Shown in pieces: positions 2,043 through 6,972 of a DNA stretch of 11,193 bases. Each line of letters opens with the position of its first letter. The first letter of the stretch is position 1. The stretch lies in the UHGV virus genome UHGV-1649846, one strand, 5' to 3'. Both the position numbers and the translations under genes were made by a program. The DNA comes from a virus. The notes beneath the pieces were generated by a model that was not told the origin of the DNA, searched no databases, and saw only the letters and a list, made by a program, of their open reading frames with translations.

Positions 2043-2078
2043 CGTCAGGAAAGCAGGGGAGAATGCTGCTAGTTGGGC

Positions 2079-2117
2079 AACTGGTCTTTCTGCTCCAAAT
2101 TATAACAGAGACCAGTT
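2079..2117. repeat. Inverted repeat AACTGGTCT ... AGACCAGTT (9-bp arms, 21-nt spacer)
   Basis: Arms at 2079-2087 and 2109-2117 are exact reverse complements, read directly. Confidence 0.5.
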
Positions 2118-2361
2118 ATAGTTTCGGTGCTGTGTTTTTTTACAATATTGTGATAACACATTGCTGGCGGGAGTTTTGATATTTCTTGGCAGGGGCTGAT
2201 GATGCGTTATCCTGATGTCGTCAACTCATATAAAATGAGATGAGAGATCATTGCAGGGTGGTTTGTAATTCGCTGTTTAGCGGGACAATATGTTGTCTGA
2301 TACAAGACACCCGACGCCTCAGATTACTATAATAAAGACGAAGCATCCTTTGTATTGACCA

Positions 2362-2387
2362 ACCGCCTGTTTAGGCGGTTCTTTTTG
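2362..2387 (+). terminator. Intrinsic terminator
   Basis: Stem ACCGCCT (2362-2368), loop GTTT, stem AGGCGGT (2373-2379), followed by a T-rich run (TCTTTTT). Confidence 0.6.
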
Positions 2388-2977: not shown

Positions 2978-3406
2978 ATGGGTTTTCGTAGCGCATCAAT
3001 TCTTACGTTGATTATTAGTGGGATTATTATCGGGTGCACTGATGCTGTATCGACAAATTATCATGACCGTACATCATATTACTCCGATAAAGCAATAGAG
3101 ACACAGTATGTGAGTTCATCTGAACGTACTTCTGATGTTAGTGAGGATATCCGTCTGTATGCCCATCAAATCAAGAGCGCCATCGAAAAACAGTTCGGGG
3201 ATGCGAGTAAGTATTCAGGAAAAGAGTGTACACTGAGAATGCATATGGCCCCGAATGGCCTTCTACTGGAGGTTAAAAGAGAAAGTGGAGACCTCGATTT
3301 ATGTCGTGAAGCGATGAATGCGATAAAGAATGCTGATATACCTGCCCCCCCTTCGCCGGAAGTATATAAAGTATTTCAAAATGGGGTGCTGGATTTTAAA
3401 CCCTGA
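2978..3406 (+). CDS. Lipoprotein with a TolA C-terminal domain (domain III)-like fold
   Basis: 142 aa. Signal peptide with lipobox IIGC (Cys20), then a ~50-residue Ser/Thr/Asp-rich linker, then ~85 residues that align closely with my recollection of the E. coli TolA C-terminus, including both conserved Cys and the terminal VLDFKP. RBS GAGGAAAA precedes the ATG. Confidence 0.8.
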   Translation: MGFRSASILTLIISGIIIGCTDAVSTNYHDRTSYYSDKAIETQYVSSSERTSDVSEDIRLYAHQIKSAIEKQFGDASKYSGKECTLRMHMAPNGLLLEVKRESGDLDLCREAMNAIKNADIPAPPSPEVYKVFQNGVLDFKP

Positions 3407-3556: not shown

Positions 3557-3952
3557 GTGGGATTAAAGAAAATCGTTATGTTGACTTTTTGGGTCGGTTT
3601 TGTTGCGGGATGCACACCTTTACACCCTTCAGATTGCCACAAAACTACTGCTACAGGTAGTTGCAGTTCAGGACGCTGGGATGATCAGGATGAATGGGGG
3701 GCGCAAGCGCGGGGAATCAGAGCTGCAATTAATGCCAAACTTGATGAGCCGCATAACTGGAAAGGGAAAAAATGCAGGTTGCATATGGAATTCTCTCAGG
3801 ATGGCACGGCGTTAAAAATATCTACCAGTAACGGTGATAAAGCCTATTGCGAAGCGATAAAGTCCGCAGCTCATAAAGCCAAATTTCCGGCCTTCAACAA
3901 TCCGGAAGTCTACAGAGATTTTCAGAAATCTGGCTTTGACATGCGAGGTTAG
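3557..3952 (+). CDS. Second, more divergent TolA-domain-III-like lipoprotein (tandem paralogue)
   Basis: 131 aa from a GTG start 6 nt after a strong SD (GAGGAG 3545-3550). Lipobox VAGC (Cys19). C-terminal ~80 residues keep the TolA-III pattern GK.C.L...DG...G...C.A...A...P....VY..F with both Cys conserved. Confidence 0.7.
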   Translation: MGLKKIVMLTFWVGFVAGCTPLHPSDCHKTTATGSCSSGRWDDQDEWGAQARGIRAAINAKLDEPHNWKGKKCRLHMEFSQDGTALKISTSNGDKAYCEAIKSAAHKAKFPAFNNPEVYRDFQKSGFDMRG

Positions 3953-4101: not shown

Positions 4102-4203
4102 ATTGCATCGTCTCCAGCATATATATCAATTAAGGCTCTGATTGATGTGTCTGAAAGCCTACACATAATAACTATGCCATCCGTTCCGTGCGGAGGTGAG
4201 GCT

Positions 4204-4419
4204 ATGAAATCCATGGACAAAATTTCAACAGGCATTGCCTACGGCACCTCCGCAGGCAGTGCTGGCTACTGGTTTTTACAGTTGCTCGATAGAGTAACTC
4301 CGTCACAGTGGGCTGCAATCGGTGTGCTGGGTAGTCTGGTATTTGGCCTGCTGACGTACCTGACAAACCTTTATTTCAAGATTAAAGAAGATAAGCGCAA
4401 GGCTGCGAGAGGTGAATAA
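4204..4419 (+). CDS. Class II holin, phage 21 S-type pinholin with dual-start motif
   Basis: Begins [26 protein letters not shown]..., nearly the S21 sequence as I recall it. Met1 and Met4 give the antiholin/holin dual start. SD GGAGGTGAGG at 4191-4200. The track's longer ORF from 4147 lacks an RBS. Stop overlaps the endolysin start (TAATG). Confidence 0.85.
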
Positions 4420-4916
4420 TGCCTCCATCATTACGAAAAGTCGTTGCTGCTGCTATTGGTGGCGGAGCAATTGCTATAGCATCAGTGCTAATCACTGGCC
4501 CAAGTGGTAACGATGGTCTGGAAGGTGTCAGCTACATACCATACAAAGATATTGTTGGTGTATGGACTGTATGTCACGGGCATACAGGAAAAGACATCAT
4601 GCTCGGTAAAACGTATACCAAAGCAGAATGCAAAGCCCTCCTGAATAAAGACCTTGCCACGGTCGCCAGACAAATTAACCCGTACATCAAAGTCGATATA
4701 CCGGAAACAATGCGCGGCGCTCTTTACTCATTCGTTTACAACGTGGGTGCTGGCAATTTCAGAACATCGACGCTTCTTCGCAAAATAAACCAGGGCGATA
4801 TCAAAGGCGCATGTGATCAGCTACGTCGCTGGACATATGCTGGCGGTAAGCAATGGAAAGGTCTCATGACTCGTCGTGAGATTGAGCGTGAAATCTGTTT
4901 GTGGGGTCAGCAATGA
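4419..4916 (+). CDS. SAR endolysin (phage 21 R-type lysozyme)
   Basis: 165 aa. Gly/Ala-rich weakly hydrophobic N-terminal signal-arrest-release segment ([20 protein letters not shown]), then a lysozyme-like domain. Sits immediately after the holin and overlaps the Rz start (ATGA). Confidence 0.85.
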
Positions 4917-5377
4917 ACAGAGTAACCGCGATTATCTCCGCTCTGGTTATCTGCATCATCGTCTGCCTGTCATGGGCTGTTAATCATTACCGTGATAACG
5001 CCATTACCTACAAAGCCCAGCGCGACAAAAATGCCAGAGAACTGAAGCTGGCGAACGCGGCAATTACTGACATGCAGATGCGTCAGCGTGATGTTGCTGC
5101 GCTCGATGCAAAATACACGAAGGAGTTAGCTGATGCGAAAGCTGAAAATGATGCTCTGCGTGATGATGTTGCCGCTGGTCGTCGGCGGTTGCACATCAAA
5201 GCAGTCTGTCAGTCAGTGCGTGGAGCCACCACCGCCTCCGGCGTGGATAATGCAGCCTCCCCCCGACTGGCAGACACCGCTGAACGGGATTATTTCACCC
5301 TCCGGGAACGACTGGTAATGATGCAGGCCCAACTTGAAGGTGCTCAGCAATACATAACCGAGCAGTGTTTAAAGTAA
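4913..5377 (+). CDS. Rz-like i-spanin
   Basis: ATG at 4913 overlaps the endolysin stop. N-terminal transmembrane segment ([14 protein letters not shown]), then a coiled-coil-like charged region. Contains the Rz1 gene in the +1 frame. The track's GTG start at 4901 is rejected. Confidence 0.8.
5133..5318 (+). CDS. Rz1-like o-spanin, embedded in Rz in the +1 frame
   Basis: 61 aa. Signal peptide plus lipobox (LVVGGC), proline-rich mature part (PPPPPAW..PPPDW). SD AGGAG at 5121-5125, 7 nt before the ATG. Confidence 0.8.
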
Positions 5378-5514
5378 AATCTTAACTACAATATGATTCA
5401 TTTTGATGATTGTTTCATAAGGAACAGTGAAGTAAGATCTAAGAGGAGTTAAATTTTATACAGTATAATCATAATATTGCAGCAAGGTGGTTATAATTGA
5501 AAGAATATTTAGAT

Positions 5515-6972
5515 ATGAATACATCTCATGTAAGAGTTGTTACTCATATGTGTGGGTTCCTAGTTTGGCTCTATAGTCTTTCAATGTTGCCACCAATGGT
5601 TGTAGCATTGTTTTATAAAGAAAAAAGCCTGTTCGTTTTCTTTATAACTTTCGTTATATTTTTTTGCATTGGTGGCGGAGCGTGGTATACAACTAAGAAA
5701 TCTGGCATTCAATTACGTACCCGTGATGGGTTTATTATAATTGTAATGTTTTGGATTTTGTTTTCTGTTATTAGTGCATTCCCTTTATGGATTGACTCAG
5801 AACTTAATTTAACGTTCATTGATGCTCTGTTTGAAGGGGTTTCTGGAATAACAACAACAGGAGCAACTGTAATTGATGATGTTAGTTCATTACCTCGGGC
5901 ATATTTGTACTATCGGTCACAGTTAAATTTTATAGGTGGTTTAGGAGTTATTGTTCTAGCGGTTGCTGTATTGCCATTATTGGGTATTGGTGGTGCAAAG
6001 CTTTATCAGTCAGAAATGCCGGGGCCATTTAAGGATGACAAACTCACTCCCCGCCTGGCCGATACGTCACGGACACTGTGGATAACTTATTCTTTATTAG
6101 GTATTGCTTGTATTGTCTGTTATAGACTTGCAGGAATGCCTTTGTTTGATGCTATTTGTCACGGGATTTCCACAGTTTCGCTTGGTGGTTTCTCAACTCA
6201 TAGCGAGAGTATCGGATATTTTAATAACTATTTGGTTGAGCTGGTGGCTGGTTCTTTTTCCCTGCTATCGGCTTTCAACTTCACTCTTTGGTATATTGTT
6301 ATTAGCAGGAAAACGATAAAACCTTTAATCAGAGATATTGAACTTCGTTTCTTTCTGTTAATAGCCTTAGGGGTGATCATTGTTACCTCTTTCCAGGTCT
6401 GGCATATAGGTATGTATGACTTGCATGGAAGTTTTATTCATTCGTTTTTTCTTGCCAGCTCCATGCTCACTGATAATGGTTTAGCTACGCAGGATTATGC
6501 AAGTTGGCCCACGCACACGATAGTGTTTTTGCTGTTGTCAAGTTTCTTTGGGGGATGTATAGGTTCAACTTGTGGTGGAATTAAGTCACTTCGATTTCTT
6601 ATACTTTTCAAACAAAGCAAACACGAGATAAATCAGCTTTCTCATCCCAGAGCGTTGTTGAGTGTAAATGTAGGAGGGAAGATAGTTACAGATCGTGTAA
6701 TGAGGTCTGTATGGAGTTTCTTTTTTCTTTATACTCTCTTCACGGTGTTTTTTATACTGGTGTTAAATGGTATGGGATATGATTTTCTTACATCATTTGC
6801 AACAGTGGCTGCATGTATTAATAATATGGGATTAGGTTTTGGGGCTACTGCATCGTCATTCGGAGTGCTTAATGACATTGCAAAATGCTTAATGTGCATA
6901 GCTATGATTCTTGGTCGCCTTGAAATTTATCCTGTTATTATATTGTTTTCAGGTTTTTTTTGGCGCTCCTAA
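5515..6972 (+). CDS. trkG: TrkH/TrkG-family potassium uptake membrane protein
   Basis: 485 aa from the ATG at 5515 (MNTSHVRVV...), multi-pass membrane protein of the Trk K+ transporter family, matching my recollection of E. coli TrkG. Visibly AT-rich. An upstream in-frame TTG at 5497 preceded by SD AAGGTGG (5485-5490) would add 6 residues. Confidence 0.9.
   Translation: MNTSHVRVVTHMCGFLVWLYSLSMLPPMVVALFYKEKSLFVFFITFVIFFCIGGGAWYTTKKSGIQLRTRDGFIIIVMFWILFSVISAFPLWIDSELNLTFIDALFEGVSGITTTGATVIDDVSSLPRAYLYYRSQLNFIGGLGVIVLAVAVLPLLGIGGAKLYQSEMPGPFKDDKLTPRLADTSRTLWITYSLLGIACIVCYRLAGMPLFDAICHGISTVSLGGFSTHSESIGYFNNYLVELVAGSFSLLSAFNFTLWYIVISRKTIKPLIRDIELRFFLLIALGVIIVTSFQVWHIGMYDLHGSFIHSFFLASSMLTDNGLATQDYASWPTHTIVFLLLSSFFGGCIGSTCGGIKSLRFLILFKQSKHEINQLSHPRALLSVNVGGKIVTDRVMRSVWSFFFLYTLFTVFFILVLNGMGYDFLTSFATVAACINNMGLGFGATASSFGVLNDIAKCLMCIAMILGRLEIYPVIILFSGFFWRS

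Follow-up and report, generated by a model that had tools for sequence, protein, structure and literature searches.

The interval from 2046 to 2387 of the window (the window being the whole stretch of 11,193 nucleotides analysed here, UHGV virus genome UHGV-1649846, a Rac-like lambdoid prophage of E. coli) is best read, from comparison with homologous loci, as an eroded, tRNA-less copy of a non-coding cassette of the Q-to-lysis moron region in a group of lambdoid phages. Intact relatives have its elements in the order tRNA-Thr or tRNA-Arg, tRNA-Gly, a segment U, an AU-rich hairpin (H1), a segment M with a T run, a long hairpin (H3), an sRNA of ~170 nt (helix P1, helices P2-P4 and an AU-rich linker) and a terminator; the window lineage has lost the tRNAs and U, and the module therefore abuts tR'. 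An earlier note, made from the sequence alone, had proposed a gene for a small RNA or a micro-protein. The small-RNA proposal was right in kind, as 2234-2386 is recognisably homologous to STnc100/PasD, but the copy is eroded; the micro-protein proposal finds no support in homologues. The features discussed below, all on the + strand, are:

1392-1934, +, Q-type late antiterminator gene (DUF1133/Phage_antitermQ; Pfam PF06576, 353 bits, and PF06530, 26.4 bits)
2012-2044, +, tR'-like intrinsic terminator, a symmetric A-run/T-run hairpin with GC core 2021-2025/2031-2035
2042-2094, +, lineage-specific joint (about 54 nt) linking tR' to the conserved module and restricted to window-type copies
2097-2124, +, H1, AU-rich hairpin with a 10-bp stem (2097-2106/2115-2124) and loop AGAGACCA (2107-2114)
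2125-2141, +, segment M (CGGTGCTG, 2125-2132) and T run (2135-2141)
2142-2221, +, H3, long hairpin (5' arm 2142-2168, apex 2169-2194, 3' arm 2195-2221)
2234-2386, +, eroded STnc100/PasD-like sRNA body (39.7 bits, E 5.5e-8, over the full length of covariance model R1)
2361-2386, +, intrinsic terminator of the cassette (pattern scan and fold; 96% identity with L002, the closest of the diverged relatives)
2978-3406 and 3557-3952, +, a tandem pair of ORFs, each encoding a TolA C-terminal domain (PF06519, 82.6 and 54.6 bits)

Locus and bracketing terminators

Many E. coli chromosomes are 100% identical to the window stretch, and positions 2042-2400 are found at a minimum of 99% identity in 447 of 5,426 complete genomes (~8%). 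One carrier is E. coli SE11 (NC_011415, 1494525-1494884), with 99.4% identity. RefSeq annotation of one identical E. coli locus gives the order DUF1367, DUF1364, DUF1133, two TolA C-terminal-domain genes, essD/rrrD/rzpD, trkG and ynaK, with nothing annotated between the Q (DUF1133) gene and the TolA-like genes; the counterpart of Q in phage ON470595 is annotated 'antitermination protein Q'. The tandem TolA-domain ORFs sit between the sRNAs and the lysis cassette, and the first is a TolA pseudogene fragment according to RefSeq. The potassium transporter gene trkG, known from the Rac prophage, lies 3' of the lysis genes (5497-6972, + strand), as it does in phage vB_EcoS-683R6, and on the basis of this position the prophage is placed in the Rac-like group.

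Both of the intrinsic terminators that the earlier note had described as bracketing the interval are present, each consisting of a GC-rich hairpin and a T run on the transcribed strand. The first (AAAAAAACCGC-TTAAT-GCGGTTTTTTT, a 14-bp stem formed by 2012-2025 and 2031-2044) folds with -19.7 kcal/mol (z -5.3); because the hairpin is symmetric it resembles a terminator on both strands, and it was missed by the terminator pattern scan, apparently because the A/T extension of the stem consumes the T run. The conserved PR' region (1935-1996) stops just short of this hairpin. A weak isrK-like Rfam match (21.6 bits, E 0.36) spans 1968-2041 on the + strand, from the conserved PR' region to tR', which is where a short terminated RNA of the StxS/IsrK/lambda 6S type would arise; its mirror on the minus strand is explained by the symmetry of tR'. 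The second terminator (stem 2361-2368/2373-2380, loop GTTT, tail TTCTTTTT to 2386) was recovered by the pattern scan and is kept in every relative, with a compensatory change from U-A to C-G at the loop-closing pair. It is the predicted terminator of the STnc100/PasD-like sRNA gene.

A conserved module downstream of tRNA genes

Neither ARAGORN nor Rfam detects a tRNA in the window, in agreement with the earlier note, and the same note's remark that phages of Stx type carry tRNA genes at this position proved apt: sister phages have tRNA-Thr/Gly or tRNA-Arg/Gly exactly here, and the interval corresponds to the conserved sequence that follows them. A sensitive search yielded a few dozen diverged copies, with extra copies contributed by pattern scans of IMG/VR, metagenomes and one genome per species. 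In the relatives the homologous sequence lies ~85 bp 3' of a phage tRNA-Gly, which tRNA-Thr or tRNA-Arg usually precedes, and in the diverged relatives it ends at the same terminator as in the window. When the phage collection was queried with the window only the PR' region was matched, and a query of type B reached vB_EcoS-683R6 and SerU-LTIIb. The former, decisive for the history of the locus, shares the backbone of the window (91.5% identity over 118-1996 and 98.7% over 4193-6813), and its Q-to-holin interval contains tR', tRNA-Thr, tRNA-Gly and the module; SerU-LTIIb has two units, each between a tRNA-Gly and a holin gene. Given these relatives, and a phage of the same backbone in which the tRNAs are present, the window lineage is taken to have kept the post-tRNA module and to lack the tRNAs themselves.

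All diverged relatives are matched by BLAST from 2095-2098 onwards, and the sequence between tR' and this point is the lineage-specific joint. The inverted repeat reported in the earlier note is indeed exact (AACTGGTCT at 2079-2087 and AGACCAGTT at 2109-2117) and is mildly unusual, an arm of at least 9 bp occurring in 33 of 1000 dinucleotide-preserving shuffles of 2046-2387. Its left arm, however, falls outside the conserved module and is restricted to the window lineage, and its right arm overlaps the loop and 3' arm of H1, so that the inverted repeat and H1 are mutually exclusive. The repeat was also considered as a conserved alternative or pseudoknot pairing with the H1 loop, and this was rejected, relatives having only chance-level complements of 6-7 nt with G-U allowed. 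With a lineage-restricted left arm and complements at chance level in relatives, the inverted repeat is, as far as the alignments indicate, a local peculiarity in competition with conserved H1.

The structure of the module was derived with RNAalifold on eight sequences followed by explicit counts of pairs. All H1 pairs (RNAalifold columns 5-32) are retained in the window, where the hairpin folds with -8.8 kcal/mol (z -4.9). In all tRNA-linked lineages M is complementary to the segment U immediately 3' of tRNA-Gly, and in lineage C both sides have changed (GCGCTG/CAGCGC). In these relatives U and M flank H1, and M is followed by the T run; U (xGCACTG) and M (CAGTGCT) lie at 2459-2466 and 2530-2537 in L003, with equivalents in L002, L004, L005, L088, L210 and L211. 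The U-M pairing may represent either a branched terminator for the tRNA cluster or an inverted repeat at the level of DNA. Segment U is absent from the window, M thus having lost its 5' partner; the long-range helix that RNAalifold proposes between M and 2343-2349 is uncertain and weaker than the U-M pairing of the tRNA-linked relatives.

Structural covariation among homologues is found in H3 and in the body helices of the relatives. For H3, 27 pairs were counted in 13 sequences from 8 lineages: 89.7% of cells are paired, compared with 26-55% in controls in which the partner was slid, and 7 pairs are altered on both sides (21 cells). The pairing or covariation score was matched by none of 500 shuffles. 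Each H3 sequence contains 1-8 G-U pairs, which become mismatches if read on the opposite strand, and this strand specificity indicates that the + strand is the RNA. In relatives H3 comprises 19-24 contiguous base pairs and is very stable (-44.6 kcal/mol, z -8.45 in L005; z -3.3 to -3.8 in L003 and L088). The window H3, with 16 Watson-Crick pairs, 7 G-U pairs and 4 mismatches, is together with that of L002 the weakest of the set, and the minimum-energy fold of the segment taken by itself does not contain it (z -0.95). A tiny ORF in the 3' arm (MMRYPDVVNSYKMR) was rejected as coding: its seemingly synonymous changes are H3 pairing partners, its R-to-H change is a double compensatory change, and its length varies from 8 to 34 codons.

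These properties bear on a possible cis role, in which H1 and H3 would act on the late transcript as an RNase III/RNase E processing or stability element, or as a leader modulating readthrough into the STnc100, TolA-like and lysis genes. Such a role would account for a covarying, strand-specific helix of this length in relatives, for the placement of the module directly 5' of holin genes in vB_EcoS-683R6 and SerU-LTIIb, and for the better conservation of H1, M and H3 than of the sRNA body. It is nevertheless judged improbable, considering the mismatched and unformed H3 of the window, the separability of the parts (E. coli M8 has a body with half of H3, as described below), and the fact that neither a ligand- or protein-binding motif nor an Rfam match was recognised.

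The sRNA body, its family and its erosion

The sRNA body was analysed in a seven-sequence alignment drawn from four lineages (B, E, F and G), with P1-P4 and the terminator annotated. In these relatives 99% of cells in the five helices are paired (97.6% for P1) and 6 pairs are doubly changed, values of pairing and covariation that were matched by 0 or 1 of 500 shuffles. The Rfam STnc100 model aligns over its full length to type-B bodies with sub-threshold scores of 27.6-30.4 bits (gathering score 47), the best being 30.4 bits with E 6.8e-5 in a local search; type-B bodies and STnc100 have in common the motifs GGUGAA-CCCC...GGGG and CGGGAGGCACCCG(A/G)CACC. In the reverse direction a covariance model (R1) was built from the same seven bodies, without window-type, L002-type or canonical STnc100 sequences, and gave the following scores:

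Training members: 156-203 bits
Independent intact copy, E. coli M8 (L006): 116.5 bits
Second intact copy in L066: 96.7 bits
L002: 40.1 bits
Window, 2234-2386: 39.7 bits, E 5.5e-8
Canonical STnc100-like copy of E2348/69: 39.6 bits
Lineage C: 28.6 bits
Canonical STnc100 of L002: 24.3 bits
Canonical STnc100 of the window, 2710-2850: 14.6 bits

In a search of 570 kb that included dozens of unrelated contigs, R1 matched only module-bearing or STnc100-adjacent loci and gave no match in the unrelated contigs; the metagenome pattern scan had yielded mostly chance matches, and these were used as negative controls. On 2040-2420 itself Rfam returns noise only, with no STnc100 match even at E<=10 and nothing reaching the gathering score of 47; for this reason the assignment of the window copy rests on the custom model R1 and on intermediates. 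By this reciprocal covariance-model search the window body is recognisably homologous to the STnc100/PasD family. PasD and STnc100 have been reported to share an ancestor, and STnc100 matches to be frequent around Pas sRNAs in prophages (Zhu, Shabalina and Storz, bioRxiv 10.64898/2026.05.13.724894). Identity with PasA, PasB, PasC or PasD themselves was rejected, as BLAST of the E2348/69 sequences against the window gave no match in 2046-2387.

A full-length, unannotated STnc100 gene (RF02076, 83.4 bits) lies ~300 nt 3' of the interval, at 2681-2867 on the + strand of the window, and the prophage therefore holds one intact and one eroded family member in tandem. In E. coli M8 (NZ_CP019953; L006 2415-2582) an intact body with the window-type 3' linker and terminator is located between iraM and a tolA-like gene, accompanied by only the apex and 3' arm of H3, from which it follows that body and H3 are separable by recombination. 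Further STnc100-like copies occur in the Q-to-lysis region of some relatives (L003 3592-3783 and L066 6968-7134), one of them directly 5' of a second tRNA-Gly. The sRNA-like units seem to be repeated and shuffled inside single prophages.

Relative to intact copies, which score 97-203 bits with R1, the window copy at 39.7 bits is much reduced. Its P1 (GAGATG at 2237-2242 with CGCCTC at 2315-2320) pairs at 5 of 6 positions (one of them G-U), the sixth being an A-C mismatch, and the AU-rich linker (2321-2360) and the terminator with its U tail (2361-2386) are kept. The internal helices P2 (CCCC/GGGG), P3 and P4 (CGGG-AGGCA-CCCG) are lost: when the window is aligned to R1, P2 is mismatched and there are gaps in place of P3 and P4. 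By comparison with type B the window is short of 17 nt, and of P4 only the CACCCGAC half is left. The fold of 2240-2388 is unexceptional (z -1.9). Identities of individual segments to L002, the nearest diverged relative, are:

H1: 96%
M and T run: 94%
H3: 89%
Body: 74%
Terminator: 96%
Downstream spacer: 84%
Canonical STnc100: 94%

Divergence is fastest in the body, which fits relaxed constraint on the sRNA, with hairpins and terminator persisting.

The 22-codon ORF of the earlier note (MLSDTRHPTPQITIIKTKHPLY) is present, with an ATG start, at 2290-2358 on the + strand. It ends 2 nt before the terminator stem at 2361, and no ORF of at least 60 aa lies wholly within the interval, although two reach into it near the second terminator (2327-2563 on the - strand and 2355-2567 on the + strand). 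A micro-protein gene with a terminator just behind its stop codon is the arrangement that this layout would suggest, yet start codon, frame and amino-acid sequence are all unconserved in homologues. The ATG at 2290 aligns with ACA in L002 (ACA, CAG or TCG across relatives), where an in-frame TAG is followed by no ATG, GTG or TTG in that frame; in types B and C the ORF is interrupted by 17 inserted nt; and in L006 its 5' half is replaced by intact P3 and P4. Besides loss of the start codon, the codon changes relative to L002 are 3 synonymous and 4 non-synonymous, no clear Shine-Dalgarno sequence precedes the ORF, and the sequence aligns with non-coding parts of the sRNA family. A micro-protein gene is accordingly regarded as exceedingly improbable, and the ORF is judged on this comparative evidence to be a chance frame inside sRNA-derived sequence and not a gene. 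The minus-strand 78-aa ORF at 2327-2563 was likewise set aside, being dissimilar to the annotated 93-aa ORF at the equivalent place in L003; both look non-coding.

The body could instead be a compact STnc100/PasD variant that still works, transcribed from a sigma-70-like promoter at 2186-2213 with a start near 2220 and ending at the terminator at 2386. Under this alternative the product would be an Hfq-dependent base-pairing RNA acting through the AU-rich linker and single-stranded stretch at 2321-2360. The promoter-like site (TTGGCA-16-TATCCT) matches at 9 of 12 positions, has TTGACA in L002 and could drive an RNA of ~165 nt; however, the region has no enrichment of promoter-like sites (11 against an expected 7.0 +/- 2.5). 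A sigma-54 promoter in the TGGCAGGGG motif was rejected, its spacing being a misfit by eye and the motif not conserved. Retention of P1, linker and U-tailed terminator is consistent with a compact sRNA, as is an alternative local fold common to the window and L002 (GGGUG/CACCC enclosing UUGU/ACAA, with one compensatory change to UUAU/AUAA) that would replace the lost helices. The near-identity of the stretch in 447 genomes points the same way, but may reflect just the recent spread of one prophage. Set against these points are the loss of three of the four family helices, a body that is the least conserved segment relative to L002, and the unexceptional fold of 2240-2388. A compact functional sRNA is therefore possible, if unlikely.

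Proposed role and related systems

The reading preferred here is that the sRNA cassette is decaying and that its terminator continues to act as a second barrier behind tR'. We consider it probable, the homology and erosion being drawn from sequence comparison and the barrier role from position. Late transcription from PR' would halt at tR' unless Q is present; in the lysogen, polymerase that leaks past tR' or starts at a weak internal promoter would be halted at 2386, and Q-modified polymerase would read through. The rating given to this reading follows from that expected behaviour. The barrier would be placed 5' of the STnc100 gene, the TolA-like genes and the lysis cassette, and any RNA made would be a remnant, ~165-345 nt in length, of an Hfq-type sRNA. 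Points against regarding the copy as a relic are the alternative fold common to the window and L002, the sigma-70-like site, and the conservation of H1, M and H3 without a nameable function.

In the intact relatives no promoter is conserved across lineages 5' of the body, and for that reason the sRNA is probably excised from the late transcript or from a transcript shared with the tRNAs; H3 is a plausible RNase III site for its release. A more radical proposal is that H1, M, H3 and the divergent STnc100-like body together form one undescribed structured phage RNA of ~290 nt, the 3' trailer of a tRNA-Gly cluster matured by RNase III at H3, of which the window version would be remodelled and active without tRNAs; we regard this as doubtful.

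Of known systems, STnc100 (RF02076) and PasD1-PasD2 are closest to the decaying cassette. Like it, they are found in the Q-to-lysis region of lambdoid prophages, on the strand of the late operon, and are of the ~170-nt size class, with an AU-rich linker and an intrinsic terminator; their closing helix and motifs are present in intact relatives, and covariance models detect the two reciprocally. They differ in that the window copy has no P2, P3 or P4 and no Rfam match, and in that this branch has H1, M and H3 in front of it and a link to tRNA-Gly, unlike canonical copies (including that at 2681-2867).

The sRNA 3'ETS-leuZ derives from a tRNA trailer, that of the E. coli glyW-cysT-leuZ operon. 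In relatives the cassette is similarly placed as a putative 3' trailer behind a tRNA cluster, with its end at the operon-distal terminator, so that by analogy its RNA could be freed by tRNA processing; however, there is no sequence relationship to 3'ETS-leuZ, and the window has no tRNA at all. Short RNAs of the PR'-tR' type (lambda 6S; StxS, PMC7547250; IsrK, PMC4825925) resemble what tR' at 2012-2044 would generate, but such an RNA would lie upstream of the interval, 2046-2387 being a separate module. PasA and PasC (EcOnc51/52) are encoded in this prophage region too, in the vicinity of tRNAs, TerB and holin genes, and PasA is cut from a longer transcript (bioRxiv 10.64898/2026.05.13.724894; PMC8550237); unlike the cassette, PasA and PasC are on the strand opposite to their neighbours, and their E2348/69 sequences have no BLAST similarity to the window. 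Neither the H3 hairpin nor the tRNA-trailer architecture is in Rfam, and no description of them was found in the published work searched.

The interval is thus a tRNA-linked, partly degraded version of a known prophage sRNA type, and as such fairly ordinary. A stretch that is unannotated in about 8% of complete E. coli genomes is explained as non-coding and prophage-derived, and a candidate micro-protein is removed; the STnc100/PasD family is extended to a tRNA-linked branch that the Rfam model misses; and the covarying H3 may mark the excision of such sRNAs from longer transcripts. The window copy offers an example of the shuffling and decay of sRNAs in the moron region, with tRNAs lost, helices deleted and the terminator retained.
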